Assembly: GCF_003018255.1 (NCBI RefSeq)
Contig: NZ_CP027440.1
Length of the DNA stretch: 64,000 nucleotides
Source of the DNA: Escherichia coli
Lineage (GTDB): Bacteria > Pseudomonadota > Gammaproteobacteria > Enterobacterales > Enterobacteriaceae
Direction: 5' to 3' (one strand)
This document shows positions 9,271 to 36,499 of this stretch, piece after piece. Position numbers and translations under genes: made by a program. Under the pieces are notes generated by a model. That model made no database searches, was not told where the DNA came from, and saw only the letters and a program-made list of their open reading frames with translations. Each line of letters begins with the position of its first letter. The first letter of the stretch is position 1.

Positions 9271-9822
9271 ATGAAAAAGAAAACAACACTTAGCGAGGAG
9301 GACCAGGCGCTGTTTCGCCAGTTGATGGCGGGGACTCGCAAGATTAAGCAGGACACGATTGTCCACCGACCGCAGCGTAAAAAAATCAGCGAAGTACCGG
9401 TCAAGCGGTTGATTCAGGAGCAGGCCGATGCCAGCCATTATTTTTCCGATGAGTTTCAGCCATTATTAAATACCGAAGGTCCGGTGAAATATGTTCGCCC
9501 GGATGTCAGCCATTTTGAAGCGAAGAAACTGCGGCGCGGTGATTATTCACCGGAGTTGTTTCTTGATTTGCACGGTCTGACGCAGTTGCAAGCCAAACAG
9601 GAACTGGGGGCGTTGATTGCCGCCTGCCGCCGTGAACATGTGTTTTGTGCCTGCGTGATGCATGGTCACGGGAAGCATATTTTGAAGCAGCAAACGCCGC
9701 TGTGGCTGGCGCAGCATCCACATGTAATGGCATTTCACCAGGCACCAAAAGAGTATGGTGGCGATGCGGCTTTGTTGGTGTTGATTGAAGTGGAAGAGTG
9801 GCTGCCGCCTGAATTGCCCTGA
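9271..9822 (+). CDS. smrB: Smr-domain ribosome rescue endonuclease SmrB (YfcN)
   Basis: 183 aa ORF, recognised sequence. Confidence 0.9.
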
Positions 9823-9937
9823 ATGCTGGCATCGAATGCTGTAGAGGGAAAGTTCGCCTTAGCCATCATATCATAAAACAGACGCCGGAAATGACGACAG
9901 GGCCAGATGGCCCCGTCGACTTGTGAAAATATCGTCA

Positions 9938-10780
9938 CTACAATTCATTCAGTACATACTGGAATCGGCACGTAGAATCAATCGGTTGTCGGCTACTGGT
10001 GTTCACATTTACCACGATATCATGTAGCTGTTTATCGGTTACCGGATGCCGTGTGGGAGAAACCGTTACCGTTGATTTATCGCAACCGTAGGAGGTAAAG
10101 GTTAACAGTTCCGAGACCACGCGGCAGTATGCACCTCTGCTATCAAAAACGCTGCCATCACAGAGTTTGCCATCTTCCATCAGGTAGGTCGAAAGCGTGG
10201 TGGTGATTGTCGAGCCATTGGATTGCAACTGTAACGCCTTATTGTGGCTGACGTAATTCTCACTCCACGAGATGTCATACGACGCGACAGGGATCGTCGG
10301 ACATACTGTGGCATGGTTCGTTGGCCCAGTATATCTCCCGAATCCGGGTTGATCTGTGATCGTATAAAAAGAAGCGAGCCACGGGCAACCATAACTGTCG
10401 GACTGAACGGTTATCTTAAACGTCTCATATGCACACTGAAATGTCGCCGTATTTATCCCAGGACAATTCGAGCTATCAGCATTACCGTAGTCAGTTAAGA
10501 TCAACACTGGCGCTGGTCCCGACCCCGTCCACGAAATAACGCTGGCTTGCTCGTTCTTCCTTATGGCATCGTTGTACACCCCATAGGCCGCCTCGTTGGG
10601 AGTTAACACCGTGACATACAAACCTCCGGTGTTATGAATAGACATTTTCCCCTTCCCATAATAAATCTTCACACTGTCGAAACTCGCGCTGGTGAGTTTA
10701 TCCCCGGCATAGCTCTTTGGAACGCTCGCACTCATCACCAGCAACACCAGGCTCGCAAAAATCATTGTCCATTTTTTCAT
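9938..10780 (-). CDS. yfcO: Fimbrial-type protein YfcO (putative tip adhesin of Yfc fimbriae)
   Basis: ORF 9938-10825; start placed at MKKWTMIFASLVLLVMSA (signal peptide) immediately after yfcP stop; last gene of fimbrial operon. Confidence 0.7.
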   Translation of the reverse strand: MKKWTMIFASLVLLVMSASVPKSYAGDKLTSASFDSVKIYYGKGKMSIHNTGGLYVTVLTPNEAAYGVYNDAIRKNEQASVISWTGSGPAPVLILTDYGNADSSNCPGINTATFQCAYETFKITVQSDSYGCPWLASFYTITDQPGFGRYTGPTNHATVCPTIPVASYDISWSENYVSHNKALQLQSNGSTITTTLSTYLMEDGKLCDGSVFDSRGAYCRVVSELLTFTSYGCDKSTVTVSPTRHPVTDKQLHDIVVNVNTSSRQPIDSTCRFQYVLNEL

Positions 10781-10781
10781 G

Positions 10782-11306
10782 TTAAAAATACTCAAAGGTT
10801 GCCGTCGCCGTAGCGCTGAAATCACCGGACGTCACATCCCGCCCGCCCTTCGCCTGTAGCCAGGCATTAAAATTGAGACTGTTATTGCCCTGGTTTAGCG
10901 GGAACGTGACACCCGTTGTGCTGTTGACTGGCACCGCCGCGCCTGCCGCCGTTTCAATACCAATCCCAGCTCCGGATGCAGAAGATGAGGCGTCAAAGGC
11001 CAGAAATCCGGGCAGTTCGCTATCTTCCGTTCCCGTCAGCGTTACCCTGACGCTAAACAGCGTGGAGCTTTTGCAATCCTTCAATTGAAATACCAACGGT
11101 ACTCGCTCTGACTGCCCGAGGTTCATTAAATCGCTGGCGGCAATGGTGGGAAAGTGCACCTCCGCCAACAGGCTACCGTTGATCACTGGCGTACAGGATT
11201 TACCGAGCAAATTACCGGTAAAGTGCAGGTTGTCGACCGCCGGGGCAGTAACGCTGTACAACAGCATCAGGCTACAGATAAAAACCAACGCACGCTTTTT
11301 CTTCAT
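10782..11306 (-). CDS. yfcP: Fimbrial minor subunit YfcP
   Basis: 174 aa ORF with signal peptide and C-terminal beta-strand motif (...FEYF) typical of pilin subunits. Confidence 0.75.
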   Translation of the reverse strand: MKKKRALVFICSLMLLYSVTAPAVDNLHFTGNLLGKSCTPVINGSLLAEVHFPTIAASDLMNLGQSERVPLVFQLKDCKSSTLFSVRVTLTGTEDSELPGFLAFDASSSASGAGIGIETAAGAAVPVNSTTGVTFPLNQGNNSLNFNAWLQAKGGRDVTSGDFSATATATFEYF

Positions 11307-11773
11307 TGATAATCCACCTGTAACGTGGCCCAGGCTTCAAAGTCTGCCTCAGGCAAATCGACACCGCTCTTTTTGACCGGTACTGCGGTTAACACCGGTA
11401 AGGCCGTTTCATTCACCACCAGTGCCGTATTGAGCTTAAAGCTCTGCCCTGCCTGTTTAAGCCGAATCGCCAGGCCAGAGATATCGGTGCTAACCGCGGC
11501 ATCGTCAAAGTCGCTCTGCGTACCGCTCCAGCTCAATTTCATTTCCATTGATGGGTCGCGAACCGCCGTATCACAGGTAATGGAATACGGCACGGTTTGC
11601 TCATAGTTACTGCCATTAATGTCATCAACAAAAACATCCTGAAAGGTTATTTCAATGGTTTTACCGTTGCTAATAGTGCAGTTAGGTGGCTGCACTAAAT
11701 AGCCGTGAAAAGAGACATTTGAGAGTGCCATCGAGCTAAAGCCCCACAGCATAAGAAGTGAGATCCGTTTCAT
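11303..11773 (-). CDS. yfcQ: Fimbrial minor subunit YfcQ
   Basis: 156 aa ORF with signal peptide, C-terminal ...VDYQ pilin-like terminus; overlapping stops/starts with neighbours. Confidence 0.75.
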   Translation of the reverse strand: MKRISLLMLWGFSSMALSNVSFHGYLVQPPNCTISNGKTIEITFQDVFVDDINGSNYEQTVPYSITCDTAVRDPSMEMKLSWSGTQSDFDDAAVSTDISGLAIRLKQAGQSFKLNTALVVNETALPVLTAVPVKKSGVDLPEADFEAWATLQVDYQ

Positions 11774-12276
11774 TGGTAATCCACCACAATTGTGGCACTG
11801 GCGTTAAATTCCGCTGCCGATAAGGTTGTACCACTCTGTTTCACCGGCACTGCTTCGAGTGCAGGGACGCCCGAGGAAAAATTAAACGGCAACCATGAAC
11901 CAGACGTTAAGTCGAGTGTTGAGTGATCACTACTTTTCTGAACCCGAATACCAAACCCTGAAATACCTGTGCTGATAACTGTTTCACCGTTGATCACAAC
12001 CGTTGTTGCCCGCATCTGTAAACGCAGGTCATCCATTGCCAGGTTGTTACAAACAAGCGAGTAATCAATGGGTTGTTTATAACCTACCCCATCGATCTTA
12101 TTGATGAATACATTACCAAACTCAACCGTCGCACCATTAACCGTGCAAGGAGGAGGGGCATCAACGAGCACTCGTAAACTCAAATTTACTGATTTACTCC
12201 CTGCAACTGCAAAGTCGCTACCAATACAACACATCAGTAACCATGTTCCCGCCCAGACTGAACAAGATCTTTTCAT
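11770..12276 (-). CDS. yfcR: Fimbrial minor subunit YfcR
   Basis: 168 aa ORF with signal peptide, C-terminal ...VDYQ pilin-like terminus. Confidence 0.75.
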   Translation of the reverse strand: MKRSCSVWAGTWLLMCCIGSDFAVAGSKSVNLSLRVLVDAPPPCTVNGATVEFGNVFINKIDGVGYKQPIDYSLVCNNLAMDDLRLQMRATTVVINGETVISTGISGFGIRVQKSSDHSTLDLTSGSWLPFNFSSGVPALEAVPVKQSGTTLSAAEFNASATIVVDYQ

Positions 12277-12292
12277 ACTTACTTCCCCGTCA

Positions 12293-13042
12293 TTAACCTT
12301 TGCGGCTCAGCTCTTCATCAACCTGACAACTGTTGCCGCTACAGGTGAAAAAGAGTGGCATCCGTGCGCCATAGTCGTTGACATAGGTCAGCACCGGCAC
12401 GCTAGCCATCTTCACCTTGAGCGGTGCGGAGGTTTTTGGCGACATCACTATCGGCGAGAAACCGTCTGCCGGATTGCCATTTTTTTGCGCGCTGGCATTA
12501 CTGAAAATGACGTAATACGGAGTAGGGTTATTGACGGTAAATTCCTGACCGTTACGGGTTAAGGTCACTTTATGCTGCCATGGGTTTTGCATGCTAGCTT
12601 TTTCCAGGGCTTTAGGTCGCCAGAAAAGTTTGATGCGTGTCTGCAGCGCAATTTGTAACGTATTGGCTTTGTTCGATTTCGGCGGAATTTCACGCACATT
12701 GAAATAAAATATCGATTCACGATCGGCAGGCAATTTATGGATATCTGGCAATCCCTGAATTTTCACCTGACCATTCATCATTGCATCAATGCGCTGTACG
12801 GGGGGCAATACTGCCAGCGGCGAACTAATCTTGACGCCCTTTTCATCTTCGATCCAGCTTTGTGCCAGATAAGGCTGTTTCGGGTCGTTATTACGCAGCG
12901 TGACGCTGATGGATTTATCGCTTTCATTAAAAATCAGGCGAGTACGATCGGGCGTTACTGACGCCAGAGCAGAAAAACTTACCGTTGCAGCCAGTAACGA
13001 CAGTACCGTTGCCAATGTTTTGACAGAGAGATGTTTAGTCAT
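12293..13042 (-). CDS. yfcS: Periplasmic fimbrial chaperone (PapD-like) YfcS
   Basis: 249 aa ORF with signal peptide and PapD-family features. Confidence 0.85.
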   Translation of the reverse strand: MTKHLSVKTLATVLSLLAATVSFSALASVTPDRTRLIFNESDKSISVTLRNNDPKQPYLAQSWIEDEKGVKISSPLAVLPPVQRIDAMMNGQVKIQGLPDIHKLPADRESIFYFNVREIPPKSNKANTLQIALQTRIKLFWRPKALEKASMQNPWQHKVTLTRNGQEFTVNNPTPYYVIFSNASAQKNGNPADGFSPIVMSPKTSAPLKVKMASVPVLTYVNDYGARMPLFFTCSGNSCQVDEELSRKG

Positions 13043-13061
13043 GGATCATTCCTTAATCACG

Positions 13062-15701
13062 TTATTGGTTCGATGAAACAGACATCGGCGGTTCCATTGG
13101 TGTCACCTGTTGTGTCTGCTCCTGAATTACAGGTTGAATATCATGCGTTATGACGGGAGCACTTCCCCCTTTTTGCTGGCATGGCAACAACAAGCCATTG
13201 AACAGGTCATTCGGTAACGGATCTGGCAGGCTGATATCGCAGTGAGATTCTCCCTCCCAGAAAACGGTCATATGTTCACCCGGCTTAACGCCTGCAAGAT
13301 AAACATTACCTTCGTCATCAACCAGCCCAACTTGTTGTTGATTATCGTTTTTCACTTCCGCCCCAAATGGCGGATGGCTGCCATCCTGCAAGCGCAGCAC
13401 TACCATCGCCTTCTCACCGCTGATCACCGCAAATTTACGGTAGCCAATAGCGCCTTCCGTCAGCGTTGCCTGGACCACCGATTGGGTAGCTTCGGCGTTT
13501 TCCGGTAGTTTGTTCAAATCGATATAAGCCTGGTTACGGTAGTAATCATTAACATCTGCCACCACCGCTTTCCCGAACATGTTGGTATAAACGGCGGAAC
13601 CATTACCTTCGACCGGCACATTAGCAACGCCATCGGCGTCGATTAGCAGACGTGTGCCTCCCATATTTTGCGTACGATGCAACGCCCCGCCGTGAGCAGT
13701 CAGTGTTACACCGCCCTGTAAGGAGACCCCCGCAGATGTGTATTGCCCCTCATGGTAGTTTGCACTCAGGTCAACTTTTGCCAGCGTACCGTCATGACTG
13801 TAATAACCATCAAGACTGGTGTGATTTTCACTGGTTCCGGCGCTCAACGTATAGTGGCTAGCGTCATCGATGCGGTGATACAAACTCGCCTGGCTGCTGT
13901 CGGCACCACTGCCATAATTGCCGTTGTAACTGATGGTGCTGTTGTCACCCCATGGCAAACTCAAGGACAGATAAACACCTTTGTCGGCACTTTTATCATA
14001 TTCGTAGCGATAACCGGTGAGAGAAACGCTCAGGTTGCGAAGACTTCCTAAATTGAAATAATGAGAAAGCATCATGTTGTAGTTGGTCTGATCCTCGCGA
14101 TCCCAATAGGTATGGTGAGAATAATTGAGATAGACCGAAACGCGCGCATCCCTAAAGTTCTGGTTGTAAGTGACCGTGTACATTTCCTTGTCGTTACCCG
14201 TGCGCGCACGGTCGGTGTCGTTCGCATCCAGATACTCACTCATGGTCATGTAGTTTTTTTCAGAGAAGCGATATCCGGCAAACGTCACCCGACTGTTGAG
14301 TTCATCGAAATCTTTGGCATAGCTGACGCGATAAGAGTTGCCGTCCAGCGTTTTGTTGCCATACACGCTGTTATCGTCGAGTTGAACACGAGAGTGAGTG
14401 ACATCAAACGCTAGCGCTCCGAACAGCGCGAGGTCACGACCGAGGCCTAACGCTGCCGACTGGTAGTTTTCATCGGCCAATGCCCCGCCGTAGAGCGACC
14501 AGCCATTCGCAATCCCCCATGACGCCTCACCGCCCGAGAAGAAGCTGCCTGCAACCTGATGGTCCCAGTTTTGTGGACGCCCCATTGTCACTTTGTAACG
14601 CACCTGACCGGGGCGGGTCAGAAACGGCATGGACGCCGTGCTGACGTCATATTCCTGTACCTGACCGTTTTGTTCTTCAATGCGGACATGCAGCGTGCCA
14701 GATACGGAATCGCCAATATCCTGAATGCGGAATGGACCTGCGGGCACCTGGGTTTCGTAAATGACACGGCCCATTTGGGTTACGGTCACTTTAGCGGTAG
14801 TGTGTGCAACGCCGGAAATATCGGGTGCGTAGCCGCGCATGTTTGGCGGTAACATTTGATCATCGGTACTGATGCTGCCGCCAATGTAACTGAAGCCATC
14901 AAAAATATCGGAGTTGAGATAATCTTCACCCAGCGAAAGTTTGGCTTTTAATGACGGCAAGGCGCGCCAGGCGTAGTAACGGCTCCACTCCCAGTTTTTT
15001 TGCGTACCGCTATCATCAGTGTCGCCGTCATCGTTACTGCGGGTATGTTGGTAATCGCTCTGCCAGTCGGCTCGTAAGCGCCACGGCCCCACGTTAACGC
15101 CGACCGTACCATTACCGCTGATGTCGTTAGTGTCATCCCCCCCATTTTCATGTCGGGTTTGTGCGTTGATACTGTAATCGGCAATAAGCCCAGGAATCCC
15201 CTCATCCCAACGCGAAGGTGGGTCCCAGTCATCGTCAGTGTATTCGAGATATGCCTGTGGCACAGAAACTAAGAGCGCAGATTGACTTAAATCGCCCTTA
15301 ATTTCCATACCTCCTATTTGGTCAGTTTTCAGACATTGTCCATCATGACCCCATTGCAAACTCTTCGCAAAATCATCTTTGAAGCCAAACTGGGCTATCA
15401 GTTCAGGTGGTAAGCAGGCATATGATTTATTCGGATCGTTTTCAGCTACATACCAATAGATATCGTATTCATCAGGTAATGGGTGATTATTTACATGAAC
15501 ACGTAAATTGTATTTCCCTGGTTCAACATACCCTTTTTGAGAAAAACGCCCCAGATCAATTTTGGTATTTCCTTTTAACTCCAGAAATCGAGCATCAAAT
15601 TGAATGGTATCATCTGCCAGTACATTAAAAGGACTCCCGGAAATTGCCAGAGCAATCCACCATGAAAGCCCCCGTAAACGAAGAAAAGAATGTTCAGGCA
15701 T
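13062..15701 (-). CDS. yfcU: Outer-membrane fimbrial usher, intact (879 aa)
   Basis: Single uninterrupted 879 aa ORF with usher-family composition and C-terminal domain; in K-12 the equivalent is split (yfcT/yfcU pseudogene). Confidence 0.85.
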   Translation of the reverse strand: MPEHSFLRLRGLSWWIALAISGSPFNVLADDTIQFDARFLELKGNTKIDLGRFSQKGYVEPGKYNLRVHVNNHPLPDEYDIYWYVAENDPNKSYACLPPELIAQFGFKDDFAKSLQWGHDGQCLKTDQIGGMEIKGDLSQSALLVSVPQAYLEYTDDDWDPPSRWDEGIPGLIADYSINAQTRHENGGDDTNDISGNGTVGVNVGPWRLRADWQSDYQHTRSNDDGDTDDSGTQKNWEWSRYYAWRALPSLKAKLSLGEDYLNSDIFDGFSYIGGSISTDDQMLPPNMRGYAPDISGVAHTTAKVTVTQMGRVIYETQVPAGPFRIQDIGDSVSGTLHVRIEEQNGQVQEYDVSTASMPFLTRPGQVRYKVTMGRPQNWDHQVAGSFFSGGEASWGIANGWSLYGGALADENYQSAALGLGRDLALFGALAFDVTHSRVQLDDNSVYGNKTLDGNSYRVSYAKDFDELNSRVTFAGYRFSEKNYMTMSEYLDANDTDRARTGNDKEMYTVTYNQNFRDARVSVYLNYSHHTYWDREDQTNYNMMLSHYFNLGSLRNLSVSLTGYRYEYDKSADKGVYLSLSLPWGDNSTISYNGNYGSGADSSQASLYHRIDDASHYTLSAGTSENHTSLDGYYSHDGTLAKVDLSANYHEGQYTSAGVSLQGGVTLTAHGGALHRTQNMGGTRLLIDADGVANVPVEGNGSAVYTNMFGKAVVADVNDYYRNQAYIDLNKLPENAEATQSVVQATLTEGAIGYRKFAVISGEKAMVVLRLQDGSHPPFGAEVKNDNQQQVGLVDDEGNVYLAGVKPGEHMTVFWEGESHCDISLPDPLPNDLFNGLLLPCQQKGGSAPVITHDIQPVIQEQTQQVTPMEPPMSVSSNQ

Positions 15702-15786
15702 CTACGTATCCATCCATGATTATTATAATTTAGTTATCTTTTATTTATAAACCCCATAACATTGCAGTTATGGGGGAACAGCATAA

Positions 15787-16353
15787 TTAGAGATATGTAA
15801 TCTGGAACGTCGTTAGCGTTTCAAACGGCGCTGGGGTTGGTGTTACCGCTGCAGTTTCACCTACTAACCAGGCTTTAAAGTTCAACGTTTGTTTCTGTTT
15901 GCCTTTTCCTGTTGAACTGTCCATCGCGATGTCCTGATCGATGCCTGCCCCCAGGTCATAACCAGTACCACGTTGGTCGCCAATCACCAGACTTACATTT
16001 GGAATTTCAGTTCCATTATCCATGTTAGACAGGGAATAGTTTTTTGAGTTGCCGGAGTACGGATTACCAGTGAATGTCGTGGTCATTGTCGTTTCAGTAT
16101 TGAAATTACAATCCTGTAAACGAATCTGGAAATCTTTAGGTGTGGTAGTCTTGCCACCGGTTAAAGAACCTGTACCAATGCTGCCCATATCCACTTCCAG
16201 TTTATGATCGTCAGGAACAATCGAGCACGGAGAGTCTTCAATTGTGCCGTAAAATCTCACTGTACCGTTGTTACCTGCGGCAACGACTGATGCTGAAGTC
16301 AGCGCCCCCATGAGCATTGCCGTGGCAACTGCTGCTTTTACAAACTTACTCAT
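15787..16353 (-). CDS. yfcV: Major fimbrial subunit YfcV
   Basis: 188 aa ORF with signal peptide, Cys pair, C-terminal ...FQITYL; first gene of operon. Confidence 0.8.
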   Translation of the reverse strand: MSKFVKAAVATAMLMGALTSASVVAAGNNGTVRFYGTIEDSPCSIVPDDHKLEVDMGSIGTGSLTGGKTTTPKDFQIRLQDCNFNTETTMTTTFTGNPYSGNSKNYSLSNMDNGTEIPNVSLVIGDQRGTGYDLGAGIDQDIAMDSSTGKGKQKQTLNFKAWLVGETAAVTPTPAPFETLTTFQITYL

Positions 16354-16959
16354 TATTTGTCCTTAAATCATAAATAATTAGAATATAAGCCAACTGAAAT
16401 ATTGACGCAGAGCTTCTTCAATTTTTACAGCGACTTTTAACCAGCCAATGAACAGATTTTCAGCTCCTGAAAAAACAGGTTCCTTGATATAATATTCTTT
16501 GGCGTGCCGAACATATTGATATTTTAATATGACTGACGCAATTTAGATTTTCTAACATTCAAAGTTAGAAATGCTTAATTAATAGGCAGGAATAATAATT
16601 ACTGAAATTTTTCATCTCAATCATGAAGAATAAGTTCAAAAAAACGGCAAATGCAAAAACCCAGTGAATAAATTAAAGTCAAAAACAATCACATGGCAAT
16701 GACTATCTTGTGATATTAATTTCGCAACGATATAATATTAAAACACTATAATTAATATAAAATCAAGACCCAATTATATTTTTCACTTTAGTCATTATTT
16801 ACCTAAAAATGCTTCCAGAAAAATAATTTATGAATAAAAGTAAATTCTCTTTCAATATGTAAATTTTTACAAATAAAAGCGTCATGCCGTATAAAATAAA
16901 GACCATTCGATCACAAGCGGATCATTGTTAGTACAATAAGATTGAATAAATTCAACATT
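16354..16959. promoter_or_regulatory. AT-rich upstream region of yfc fimbrial operon (promoter / likely nucleoid-protein-bound region)
   Basis: About 600 bp with no credible ORF and visibly very high A+T content directly upstream of yfcV. Confidence 0.4.
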
Positions 16960-17003
16960 GCCAGAAAAAATAAAGGCCCGATAGCTTACGCCAGCGGGCC
17001 TTG
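16960..17003 (-). terminator. Putative intrinsic terminator downstream of sixA
   Basis: GC stem GGCCCG/CGGGCC with 13-nt loop; A-run on plus strand (= U-run on minus transcript) following the stem. Confidence 0.45.
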
Positions 17004-17013
17004 TGCATGCGTA

Positions 17014-17499
17014 TTAAATCGCCTTTGCCATCTTCAAATTACATGGGCTCATCTGCCAGTTAAATGTGCCGTTTCCGCTTTCATCAAGCGTTACGCTGGC
17101 AATGGCCGAGGTGGTAAACATAGGCGGCGTTTCGCCCGGACATAACTCAGCAACCAGATACCCGACTAAGGGTAAGTGGGAGATCACCAGTACCGAAGCA
17201 ACACCTTCATTGGTCAACGCCTGCAAATAGGCACTGACCAGACCAACATCGCCGCAGGGCGTTAACTCCGGCAGAACTTCTGCACTGGAAGGCAGGTTCA
17301 GACAATCCCCTACTTCTTCAAGTGTTTGCTCGGCTCGCAGGAACGGGCTCACCAGAACGCGTTCGATTTCCACTTTTTGACCTTTCAGCCAGTTCGCCAT
17401 CAGGCGAGATTCGTCACAACCGTTAGTGGTCAGAGGACGAACCGAATCACTGGCGGCATCGAGGGCTGCGTCGCCGTGACGCATGATAAAAACTTGCAT
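17014..17499 (-). CDS. sixA: Phosphohistidine phosphatase SixA
   Basis: 161 aa ORF, RHG motif at N-terminus (MQVFIMRHGDA...). Confidence 0.93.
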   Translation of the reverse strand: MQVFIMRHGDAALDAASDSVRPLTTNGCDESRLMANWLKGQKVEIERVLVSPFLRAEQTLEEVGDCLNLPSSAEVLPELTPCGDVGLVSAYLQALTNEGVASVLVISHLPLVGYLVAELCPGETPPMFTTSAIASVTLDESGNGTFNWQMSPCNLKMAKAI

Positions 17500-25451: not shown

Positions 25452-25526
25452 GTCCTCTTAGTTAAATGGATATAACGAGCCCCTCCTAAGGGCTAATTGC
25501 AGGTTCGATTCCTGCAGGGGACACCA
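25452..25526 (+). tRNA. argW: tRNA-Arg (anticodon CCU)
   Basis: 75-nt sequence GTCCTCTTAGTTAAATGGATATAACGAGCCCCTCCTAAGGGCTAATTGCAGGTTCGATTCCTGCAGGGGACACCA; cloverleaf with CCT anticodon loop, T-loop GGTTCGATTCC. Confidence 0.95.
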
Positions 25527-25735
25527 GATACCCTTCAAACCAAATCTACCTTCACCCCGTAAAAGATGGGTTTGGCAGCACACTTGCCCTATATCTACTC
25601 ATTTTTACTGCAACAGGTTGAAATCTCAGCACTGTCAGAAAGCGCTGATGACTAAACAGCCCTGGGCCGGGCGATGTAACCATCATACAGAATCCTGATA
25701 GCGAAATATGGCGTGACTCGATACTTCACTCTGCA

Positions 25736-25888
25736 ATGCATTCCTTGATGAATTCGCAGGCCCGTGATACACGGGACACGTGGCTGAATGACGACAATGT
25801 CCTGGAAATCAGCGAACCGCGTATCCGGAGTACATTTGAGCGACTGTACCAGAACATGAATGAGGCGTTTGGATTAGGTGATTATTAG
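25736..25888 (+). other. Short unassigned ORF (50 aa) / possible gene remnant adjacent to argW
   Basis: Open frame with internal ATG 25736 ending TAG 25886-25888; frame is open back to 25652 and an out-of-frame ATG at 25648 precedes it, suggesting a degraded or frameshifted gene; below the 60 aa cutoff of the ORF track. Confidence 0.2.
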
Positions 25889-34306: not shown

Positions 34307-35469
34307 TAAAGTTGTCCATTATGCGAAATAATGTTGCTAATTTCTTTTTCTATCGGAGTAGTATCGATAACTAAAGCCTTACTGGTATAAGCAGGCATGG
34401 AGGTCACGGTTGAAGCCAGCTCAGGCATCTCAGCAATGTCTTCGTCCTTCGTATCAATAGTTGCAGTCATCGATAAACCAATACGTAAGGGATGTTCCAT
34501 GAGTTCTTTTGGATCAAGAGAAACTTCAACCGGTACACGCTGAACGATTTTGATCCAGTTCCCTGTCGCATTTTGTGCAGGTAATAAGGAGAACGCATTG
34601 CCGGTTCCCATATTGATTCCTGTCACCCGACCATGAAACACAACATTTTCACCATAAAGATCGCTGATAATATTGACCGATTGACCAATCCGTACATCCG
34701 TGAGTTGTGTTTCTTTAAAGTTGGCATTAACCCACATTTGACGTGCCGGTACGACAGCCATTAACGATTGTCCGGGACTCACTGTTTCGCCGACCTGAAC
34801 ACTTCGCTGGGCAATATAGCCGGTAACAGGACTCTTAATATCCGTACGTTTAAGCGCTAACCAGGCTTCTTTGGTTGCATCTGCCGCTTCAACGACTTGT
34901 GGCTGACGGTTTAATGGTGTGTTCATTACTAAAGCTTTATTCGCTTTATAAGCCTGGATAGCGGCATTCAATGCCGCTTTGCTACTTATTAACGTATCTT
35001 TGGTATGCTCCAGCGTTTCTTTTGAAATAACCCCCTGCTTCGCTAAAGGCACACGACGGTTATAATCTTCTAAAGATTGTTGATACTGAATACGTGCTGA
35101 AGCGACTTCGGCACTGTATTGTTTATCCTGTAAGTACAGTTTATTCGTTTGCCGAACAATATTTGCCAGATTATTTTTAGCTTTATTGAGTGCGATAGTG
35201 GCATCAGTCTTATCCAGTGAGACTAAAATGTCACCCTGTCGAACGTAGTTCGTATCTTTATGATTAACGACAGTGACGCTGCCTGAAACTTGTGCAGAAA
35301 TTGGATCTGCATTCCCCGTGACATAGGCGTCATCTGTACTAATCATGTCTTCTAATTCCATTGACCAATAGGCATAGGCACCTGAAAACGCAATAAATAA
35401 AACTACCGCCAATAAAGAAAAGTATTTTCTTCTGTTAGAATGTTTTTTATTTGAATTAATCTGTTCCAC
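34306..35469 (-). CDS. emrK: Membrane fusion protein EmrK (EmrA paralogue)
   Basis: 387 aa ORF with N-terminal TM anchor and coiled-coil region; stop/start overlap with emrY. Confidence 0.93.
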   Translation of the reverse strand: MEQINSNKKHSNRRKYFSLLAVVLFIAFSGAYAYWSMELEDMISTDDAYVTGNADPISAQVSGSVTVVNHKDTNYVRQGDILVSLDKTDATIALNKAKNNLANIVRQTNKLYLQDKQYSAEVASARIQYQQSLEDYNRRVPLAKQGVISKETLEHTKDTLISSKAALNAAIQAYKANKALVMNTPLNRQPQVVEAADATKEAWLALKRTDIKSPVTGYIAQRSVQVGETVSPGQSLMAVVPARQMWVNANFKETQLTDVRIGQSVNIISDLYGENVVFHGRVTGINMGTGNAFSLLPAQNATGNWIKIVQRVPVEVSLDPKELMEHPLRIGLSMTATIDTKDEDIAEMPELASTVTSMPAYTSKALVIDTTPIEKEISNIISHNGQL

Positions 35470-35642
35470 TTTTATCTCTCATTTCGCATAGATGAAATTT
35501 ATGAATTGAATGAAAAGAGTATTCATTCTTCATATCAAACACAGTGCATGTGTTGCACATTATCCCAGGAACGTTGGAGGCCTAATTTAAATGAGGTGCA
35601 AAAAAAACAACAGAGGACTAAACCGTGGCTTTTGCAATACAA

Positions 35643-35660
35643 TTCTTACGCATGTAGGAT
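35643..35660. promoter_or_regulatory. 18-bp EvgA-box-like inverted repeat TTCTTACG-CA-TGTAGGAT in emrK-evgA divergent region
   Basis: Matches the TTCYTACA-NN-TGTARGAA pattern shared by three other sites in this window. Confidence 0.5.
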
Positions 35661-35884
35661 TAGTGAGAAGACTTATAGTGCTAATGTGAAACTATAAATC
35701 ATCGGTACAATCCCTGATTTTATTGTTGACATTTCATTTATGCCGACTATTTATATGGTATACTTGTTGAATTATCTTAAAGGAAGCTCAAATTTTCTTA
35801 TTTTGATTGAGAAAATGAGATGATGCCTTATGTCTGTATTACTACAGGGAGAAGGGAAATGCTTCATTGCAAAGGGAATAATCT

Positions 35885-36499
35885 ATGAACGCAATAATTA
35901 TTGATGACCATCCTCTTGCTATCGCAGCAATTCGTAATTTATTGATCAAAAACGATATTGAAATCTTAGCGGAGTTGACTGAAGGGGGAAGTGCCGTTCA
36001 GCGGGTGGAAACACTTAAACCTGATATCGTCATCATTGATGTCGATATCCCCGGAGTTAACGGTATCCAGGTGTTAGAAACGCTGAGGAAGCGCCAATAT
36101 AGCGGAATTATTATTATCGTCTCCGCTAAAAATGACCATTTTTACGGGAAACATTGTGCTGATGCTGGCGCTAATGGTTTCGTGAGTAAAAAAGAAGGCA
36201 TGAACAATATCATTGCAGCTATTGAAGCTGCAAAAAATGGCTACTGCTATTTCCCCTTCTCTCTCAACCGGTTTGTTGGAAGTTTAACGTCCGACCAGCA
36301 AAAACTCGACTCCTTATCGAAACAAGAAATTAGTGTCATGCGGTATATTCTTGATGGCAAGGATAATAATGACATTGCTGAAAAAATGTTCATCAGCAAC
36401 AAAACTGTCAGCACTTATAAAAGTCGCTTGATGGAAAAATTAGAATGCAAATCACTGATGGATCTTTACACATTCGCACAACGTAACAAAATCGGCTAA
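35885..36499 (+). CDS. evgA: Response regulator EvgA (NarL/FixJ family)
   Basis: 204 aa ORF, receiver domain plus LuxR-type HTH. Confidence 0.95.
   Translation: MNAIIIDDHPLAIAAIRNLLIKNDIEILAELTEGGSAVQRVETLKPDIVIIDVDIPGVNGIQVLETLRKRQYSGIIIIVSAKNDHFYGKHCADAGANGFVSKKEGMNNIIAAIEAAKNGYCYFPFSLNRFVGSLTSDQQKLDSLSKQEISVMRYILDGKDNNDIAEKMFISNKTVSTYKSRLMEKLECKSLMDLYTFAQRNKIG

Follow-up and report, generated by a model that had tools for sequence, protein, structure and literature searches.

The 660 bp between yfcV and sixA in the E. coli DNA studied here very probably act in cis to regulate the Yfc (Stf-type) chaperone-usher operon, under silencing by H-NS, and they also contain the terminator of the gene upstream. 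The composition, anatomy and conservation pattern of this spacer, and the terminator, are direct observations from the sequences compared, and silencing of yfc through the spacer is supported by published work, in which the ChIP data are for the K-12 allele, only 61% identical to the allele studied. Direct binding of H-NS to the studied allele is inferred. Silencing at this spacer is already in the literature, in the K-12 data and in an RNA-seq table for the same allele, and to that extent our analysis has little discovery value, being a sequence-based confirmation of textbook H-NS silencing of a cryptic fimbrial operon. What is newly added is descriptive, and comprises the sixA terminator, a division into allele families with sharp boundaries, a composition that is kept where the sequence is not, a bidirectional promoter-like core, the constant length of the leader and a set of islands shared across genera.

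Both edges of the spacer are exact, with the start codon of yfcV on one side and the stop codon of sixA on the other (Table 1). The YfcV protein has StfA as its best NCBIfam match (E = 9.5e-41, under the model's cut-off), and yfcV is followed in the operon by genes for the usher (intact at this locus, 879 aa), the chaperone, three minor subunits and an adhesin of the yfcO family. The spacer is 100% identical in chicken isolate 104 and in APEC O78:H4 E14033.

The earlier note had described a 660-bp AT-rich non-coding stretch upstream of the yfc operon with lower GC content than the flanking genes, and in this it was right, the GC content being 0.294 as against 0.491 for the window (the whole 64-kb stretch of DNA analysed) and 0.46-0.53 for the yfc genes. 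A windowed comparison agrees: only 0.11% of 660-bp windows have an equal or lower GC content, every one of them overlaps the spacer, and the minimum is 0.282. Within the core of the spacer (16600-16900) the value is 0.239. Nine neighbouring intergenic spacers are 61-371 bp in length with GC content of 0.36-0.55, except for the yfcV-usher gap (85 bp, GC 0.306), and from comparison with these and with the yfc genes the studied spacer is the longest and most AT-rich nearby. Given the GC content of the yfc genes, the AT-richness is limited to non-coding DNA and there is no AT-rich island. The description as AT-rich holds for most of the spacer but not for the sixA-proximal end (about 16958-17013), which has a GC content of 0.52 and contains the sixA terminator.

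Table 1. Positions of the features discussed (numbering of the window; promoter elements and leader are predictions)
Feature	Position	Strand	Details
yfcV-sixA intergenic spacer	16354..17013	.	660 bp, GC 0.294
yfcV	15787..16353	-	major subunit gene, first of yfc operon, proposed target of silencing; ORF, annotation, best NCBIfam match StfA
sixA	17014..17499	-	conserved core gene upstream; ORF, annotation
sixA intrinsic terminator	16965..17002	-	hairpin AAGGCCCG...CGGGCCUU, arms 16995-17002 and 16973-16980, then UAUUUUUU (16972..16965)
Distal variable AT-rich filler	16776..16957	.	GC 0.247; no block common to alleles; length 156-208 bp
Conserved promoter-like core	16700..16775	.	GC 0.22; alignment with K-12 promoter site
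Sense candidate promoter P1	16745..16773	-	-35 TTGGGT (16773..16768), 17-nt spacer, -10 TATAGT (16750..16745); predicted
Sense candidate promoter P2	16732..16761	-	-35 TTTATA (16761..16756), 18-nt spacer, -10 TATTAT (16737..16732); predicted
Antisense (divergent) promoter-like element	16708..16736	+	-35 TTGTGA (16708-16713), 17-nt spacer, -10 TATAAT (16731-16736)
Predicted long AT-rich 5' leader of yfcV	16354..16731	-	about 375 nt; length conservation
Leader island	16491..16507	-	sense C(G/A)CCAAAGAATAT; left arm of imperfect inverted repeat
Leader island	16435..16454	-	sense TGTTCATTGGCTGGTTAAAA, in other alleles TATTCAATGGCTGG.TATAAA; right arm of inverted repeat
Translation initiation region	16354..16388	-	TTATATT.TAATTATTTATG.TTTAAGGACAAATA; SD AAGGA at 16364..16360

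The last 50 bp or so on the sixA side are the intrinsic terminator of sixA. A GC-rich hairpin and a U-tract come right after the sixA stop codon, and a 62-nt segment that includes them folds at -22.7 kcal/mol (z = -2.6). Five alleles retain the hairpin; 92% of cells are paired in them, and three of the pairs have compensatory changes. A pattern scanner missed the sixA hairpin, and reported no terminator-like site inside the spacer. Since it is the terminator of sixA, this end is outside the yfc regulatory region.

The filler adjoining the terminator has a mean pairwise identity of 0.34 over six allele families. Beyond it is the promoter-like core, with GC content of 0.16-0.30 across alleles, which aligns with the TTGAAA-17-TATAGT site that was read as the constitutive yfcV promoter of K-12 (Shimada 2014, PMC3946193). 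Two candidate promoters face yfcV. P1, which scores 8/12 and is the one aligned to the K-12 hexamers, would give a start site near 16738, and P2 scores 8-9/12 at identical alignment columns in seven of the eight sequences, the exception being CFT073. The top-scoring and best-conserved sigma-70 match in the spacer is on the plus strand and faces away from yfcV: it is TTGTGA-17-TATAAT, at 10-11/12 and again at identical alignment columns in 7/8 alleles. Its -10 hexamer overlaps that of P2 on the opposite strand, and because of this overlap the core resembles a symmetrical promoter that faces both ways. These promoter positions and the start site are predictions from sequence, made with a simple consensus scan and not with PlatProm. 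The scan placed 7 of the 21 sigma-70-like matches of a 20-kb stretch inside the spacer, five on the plus and two on the minus strand, a number not significantly above that for composition-matched shuffles (4.0 ± 1.9). By the same scan the spacer has dense sites on both strands over at least 300 bp, which is how the Ozoline group recognise promoter islands.

With regard to the predicted leader, the segment 16354-16699 is 334-349 nt long in all of the Escherichia alleles aligned, with a GC content of 0.24-0.32, and folding of the leader RNA gave no significant structure (z = -1.1). The parts that survive the divergence between alleles are short islands, which read in the sense direction AGTAAA..TAAATTG, CACCAAAGAATAT, an island containing GGA at 16461-16469, TATTCAATGGCTGG.TATAAA, and the last 35 nt with the SD sequence AAGGA; the terminator hairpin and the promoter core also survive. 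O157 and E. whittamii have the island at 16491..16507 as an exact CACCAAAGAATAT, and this island is found in both Pseudocitrobacter species too. In the block at 16331-16388, which includes the first 23 nt of yfcV, 49 of the 59 columns are invariant over four allele families, and the TTTAAGGA ribosome-binding region is retained in stfA of Salmonella, Citrobacter and Enterobacter. The island containing GGA lies between two arms, CCAAAGAATA / TATTCAATGG, which are separated by about 44 nt and make up the imperfect inverted repeat. RNAalifold gave only -5.3 kcal/mol for this conserved repeat, with a covariation term of 0.06 and no covariation, a result that is uninformative because the pairs are nearly invariant.

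Within E. coli the spacer falls into four allele families that cover 98% of 5426 complete genomes. Counted at a coverage of at least 80%, the K-12 type is in 3072 genomes, the CFT073/B2 type in 1206, the studied type in 633 and the O157 type in 429, and there are further types in strain E69 and in E. whittamii. Identity between families is only 0.57-0.64, as against 0.53 for shuffled sequence, and all families are 566-687 bp in length with a GC content of 0.26-0.32. It has been reported that H-NS-bound regulatory spacers in general evolve faster (Higashi et al., PMC4720273). The filters used in that study (at most 300 bp, distance below 1) would exclude the yfcV-sixA spacer (PMC4720273). As a control we took the stretch across the emrK-evgA spacer, which ranks second in the window for AT-richness. 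It is present in 5401 genomes, and nearly all of these have it at an identity of 95% or more. The allele divergence begins exactly at the sixA stop codon, spans the entire operon and stops within smrB-proximal DNA. Between alleles the usher and chaperone are about 75-80% identical, the YfcV protein 67-72% and the tip subunits about 50-60%.

H-NS is understood to act via bulk AT content, and the features of the spacer are in agreement with this. TpA steps are at 2-fold and A/T tracts at 3-fold the density of the window, both matching the expectation from local composition. The high-affinity H-NS motif TCGATAAATT has three matches with at most two mismatches, which is 3.3-fold the window density but no enrichment beyond composition (2.7 ± 1.7 are expected from the spacer's own composition). 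As TpA steps, A/T tracts and motif are all at the level set by composition, the silencing would rest on bulk AT content and not on a special site. A high-affinity motif or strong intrinsic curvature speaks for H-NS silencing where present, but neither is required for it. Predicted curvature, which had been proposed as a check, is raised, but only modestly, with 15.8 in the top 200-bp bin against a background of about 10 and with other bins at up to 15.2; these values come from a wedge model and are weak evidence either way.

That the spacer is an H-NS target, and that this explains the cryptic expression of yfc, was proposed from the sequence in the earlier note and is supported by published data. 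In K-12 the yfcV/sixA spacer is promoter island 2453647_489, one of 78, and was scored as H-NS-bound in the ChIP studies of Kahramanoglou (MG1655) and Oshima (W3110) (PMC3661553). It has a genomic SELEX peak for the RpoD holoenzyme with a predicted promoter and an HNS flag (PMC3946193), and is also in a table of the stationary-phase sigma section of another study (PMC5493296). The evidence is most direct for EAEC 042, in which the spacer is 96.5% identical to that studied here, and the gene adjoining it, EC042_RS13790, is among the genes most derepressed by deletion of hns, its expression rising 235.5-fold at 25 °C but only 4.2-fold at 37 °C (PMC7582179 Table 2A). Part of this effect could be indirect, since many regulators are altered in an hns deletion and growth of the mutant is poor at 25 °C. 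The spacer has both an AT excess over several hundred bp and, from the literature on 042, a downstream gene that is derepressed in an hns deletion, two of the properties by which an H-NS-silenced region is recognised. Wurpel 2013 reported yad, yeh and yfc to be functional but cryptic, and the same paper, citing Korea et al. 2010, gives many chaperone-usher fimbriae of commensal E. coli as cryptic and H-NS-repressed (PMC3559732). Expression of yfcV is raised by overproduction of TosR in CFT073 (PMC5956150) and of BolA in K-12 (PMC4337573), effects that fit a silenced promoter open to counter-silencing. A literature search for LeuO and yfcV gave nothing specific.

On the minus strand the elements are arranged as the end of sixA with its hairpin and U-tract (16965-17002), about 180 bp of filler, the core (16700-16775) and then a predicted leader of about 375 nt to the yfcV ribosome-binding site. 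As there are about 600 bp at 24-30% GC, we infer that H-NS forms a filament across the promoter core and the leader, probably together with StpA or Hha. Such a filament would block productive initiation and probably elongation too, and would also block spurious initiation at the many promoter-like hexamers. A block on initiation by the filament would account for the yfc operon being cryptic in the laboratory, and more tightly so at 25 °C than at 37 °C.

The AT-richness could also be passive, arising from AT-biased mutation in weakly constrained DNA or as a relic of horizontal acquisition, with no silencing role and with the hns effect in 042 being indirect. Several observations are compatible with this, as the filler of about 180 bp is unconstrained in sequence and variable in length, the H-NS nucleation motif is no more frequent than composition predicts, the predicted curvature is unremarkable, and the ChIP evidence for H-NS covers the diverged K-12 allele only. 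Nonetheless we consider it unlikely. The most conserved parts, the core and the leader, are as AT-rich as the unconstrained filler or more so, which argues against pure mutational decay. The same composition is found in every allele and across five genera, the GC content of the operon genes speaks against an AT-rich island, and the K-12 allele is bound by H-NS in vivo. A hidden small protein gene or small RNA as the real functional content of the spacer is very improbable. The only lead is the strong and conserved promoter-like element on the plus strand, TTGTGA-17-TATAAT, from which non-coding RNA of about 260 nt could be transcribed toward the sixA terminator; in the O157-type allele this terminator has U-runs on both sides. 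However, nowhere in the spacer is conservation lower than in the DNA downstream of this element. The finding of a conserved small gene or sRNA had been named in the earlier note as counting against silencing, and searches for one by ORF, tblastn, Pfam, NCBIfam and Rfam were all negative. The longest ORF within the spacer is 35 aa, and the claim that there is no credible ORF stands, as ten ORFs reach 15 aa or more and all of them lack a Shine-Dalgarno sequence, conservation in other alleles by tblastn (best E = 0.03 over 11 aa) and a match in Pfam or NCBIfam. A leader peptide at 16437-16514 was considered and rejected because in the alignment its ATG is absent from K-12, O157 and CFT073. The Rfam scan, at a permissive E-value, gave chance matches alone, with nothing better than E = 0.1. 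PGAP annotation placed no feature in the spacer of a genome in which it is 100% identical, and there is no annotated feature under the spacer match among the matches listed for 634 genomes.

We also considered a phase-variation switch, working by inversion of a promoter element (as at fimS) or by Dam/Lrp methylation (as at pap), and regard it as extremely unlikely. A perfect 9-bp inverted repeat (16511-16519 and 16852-16860) does bracket the promoter core, but it is one of four perfect 9-bp inverted repeats seen, when by our estimate about three are expected by chance at such AT content. Further, in 633 of the 634 matching genomes the alignment is a single colinear one over at least 80% of the query and the inverted orientation was not seen, so that inversion of the fimS type is rejected as far as assemblies show; there is also no recombinase gene between smrB and fadJ. 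In the case of a pap-type switch, two GATC sites do lie upstream of the ATG, at a distance of 559-570 bp and with a spacing of 11 bp, but this type is rejected because such sites are not conserved, being absent from CFT073 and varying in number and position among the other alleles. There are also no small regulator genes like papI or papB between smrB and fadJ.

Beyond bulk silencing by H-NS, there is some chance, though we think it a low one, and offer it tentatively, that the bidirectional core about 380 nt from the ATG, the leader of conserved length and the islands with the AAGGA Shine-Dalgarno sequence constitute an undescribed dedicated control module. If so, these elements could be sites for an anti-silencer, or parts of a switch that acts after initiation, for example by premature termination under regulation or through a protein of the CsrA type that binds there. 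The surviving islands mark where to seek specific regulators of Yfc/Stf fimbriae. There is also a practical point, as yfcV is in wide use as a marker of uropathogenic strains. When its presence or absence is scored by PCR or BLAST, it needs to be considered that the operon and its control region occur in four or more allele families, which have diverged deeply between sharp limits at smrB and the stop codon of sixA.

With regard to the systems already known, the K-12 spacer has the same position between sixA and yfcV, is similar in length (680 bp as against 660 bp) and GC content (0.32 as against 0.29), and shares the conserved promoter core, leader islands and terminator hairpin. However, it belongs to a separate allele family, with an overall identity not far above the 53% for shuffled sequence, and the usher gene yfcU is a pseudogene in K-12, whereas it is intact at the studied locus. 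The EAEC 042 locus is much closer, the conserved blocks of the spacer being identical and the yfcV, usher and chaperone genes 80-97% identical. In contrast the distal genes (equivalents of yfcR to yfcO) are only about 55% identical to those of 042, with a breakpoint near 12270, and the yfc operon is thus a mosaic.

The fimS and pap systems are both subject to H-NS. They resemble the yfc locus in that an extended AT-rich control region precedes the gene for the major fimbrial subunit, but differ in that yfc has neither a recombinase nor papI or papB, is seen in a single orientation in 633 genomes and lacks a conserved pair of GATC sites. In the case of mat/ecp, the regulator MatA has an anti-silencing role. 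The mat/ecp genes are in the same hns-deletion table for 042, which also names MatA (PMC7582179), but whereas mat/ecp has this regulator of its own, no regulator gene accompanies yfc. The yad and yeh fimbriae are like yfc in being described as cryptic in the laboratory (PMC3559732).

The spacer can also be compared with those of the stf operons of other genera. In Salmonella, Citrobacter, Enterobacter and Pseudocitrobacter the stfA/yfcV gene is preceded by 465-720 bp at a GC content of 0.23-0.30, in differing chromosomal contexts. The first three have a homologous major subunit (43-48% identity), the long AT-rich spacer and the TTTAAGGA ribosome-binding region, but the leader islands are mostly unrecognisable, and only the ribosome-binding region and in part the hexamers can be seen; in Salmonella the operon is located after sspB. 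Promoter-like elements about 380 nt from the ATG are present in Citrobacter, Enterobacter and Pseudocitrobacter. In Pseudocitrobacter the operon again comes after sspB and not sixA, and here both the leader islands and the core are kept, with a distance from core to ATG of 389 nt as against 388 nt, and P. corydidari has an antisense promoter match of 10/12 at the same distance. As it is kept across genera and chromosomal contexts, the long AT-rich region upstream belongs to the conserved architecture of this fimbrial family and moves with the operon.

The entire yfc operon and its upstream yfcV-sixA spacer (window 9700-17013) form a hypervariable block, with sharp edges at smrB and at the sixA stop codon. 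Against both K-12 and CFT073 the flanks of this block are 95-100% identical to the window, the usher and chaperone genes about 75-80% and the tip subunits about 50-60%. Comparison with EAEC 042, which has the same spacer type as the window, gives a mosaic, with 85-97% identity from about 12270 to 17013 and only about 55% from about 9870 to about 12270. This alignment pattern implies a recombination breakpoint within the operon.

In Pseudocitrobacter corydidari and Salmonella enterica a homologous operon is found after sspA-sspB and not after sixA. An AT-rich upstream spacer of 573-601 bp is nevertheless kept at this different location, and it is thus indicated that the control region moves along with the operon. 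A spacer of the window type is also present, between the end of sixA and yfcV, on a 2.2-kb contig (JAIJJM010000567.1) of a metagenome-assembled genome labelled Collinsella sp. The identity to the window is 96.7% for the spacer and 93% for yfcV, and the contig is almost certainly a mis-binned one from E. coli.

Features of the yfc control region and operon (window coordinates unless an accession is given)
Feature	Sequence	Position	Strand	Remark
Sigma-70-like element	TTGTGA-17-TATAAT	16708-16736	+	top-scoring and best-conserved such match of the spacer
Promoter-like element	TTTATA-18-TATAAT	15751..15722	-	inside the yfcV-usher gap
Imperfect inverted repeat	CCAAAGAATA / TATTCAATGG	16435-16507	-	two conserved leader islands
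IS1A-bearing spacer		NZ_CP068041.1 3339661-3341117		strain XJW9B277

The predicted sigma-70-like element is oriented towards the sixA terminator, that is away from yfcV. Its -10 overlaps a -10 on the sense strand, so that the core of the spacer, as a promoter predicted from sequence, would be symmetrical and bidirectional. Also AT-rich, with a GC content of 0.306, is the 85-bp gap that separates yfcV from the usher gene (window 15702-15786). It may serve for internal transcription initiation or for attenuation between the major subunit and usher genes.

The two islands of the inverted repeat, in the predicted leader of yfcV, are conserved among the diverged spacer alleles and are also present in Pseudocitrobacter. 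They are separated by about 44 nt, with a GGA-containing island between them. No covariation was found between the arms, and the repeat could therefore be read either as an RNA hairpin or as paired protein sites, which are indistinguishable on this evidence.

In one bovine E. coli, strain XJW9B277, an IS1A has inserted into a K-12-type yfcV-sixA spacer. Cryptic operons can be switched on by IS insertion in H-NS-silenced control regions, bgl being the example given in PMC9678765.

Elsewhere in the window, at 25453-25888 by coordinates transferred from the annotation of the near-identical strain 104, there is a tRNA-Arg gene and after it a DUF4942-domain gene of 153 bp, which strain 104 has annotated as a complete CDS. 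The next gene encodes an MFS transporter. The arrangement resembles a remnant left at a tRNA integration site.

Among the 660-bp stretches of the window, the second most AT-rich has a minimum GC of 0.333 and spans the divergent emrK-evgA spacer (35470-35884). In contrast to the yfcV spacer, a 1.6-kb query taking in parts of both genes (34800-36400) has an identity of 95% or more in almost all the 5401 E. coli genomes in which the region is present.
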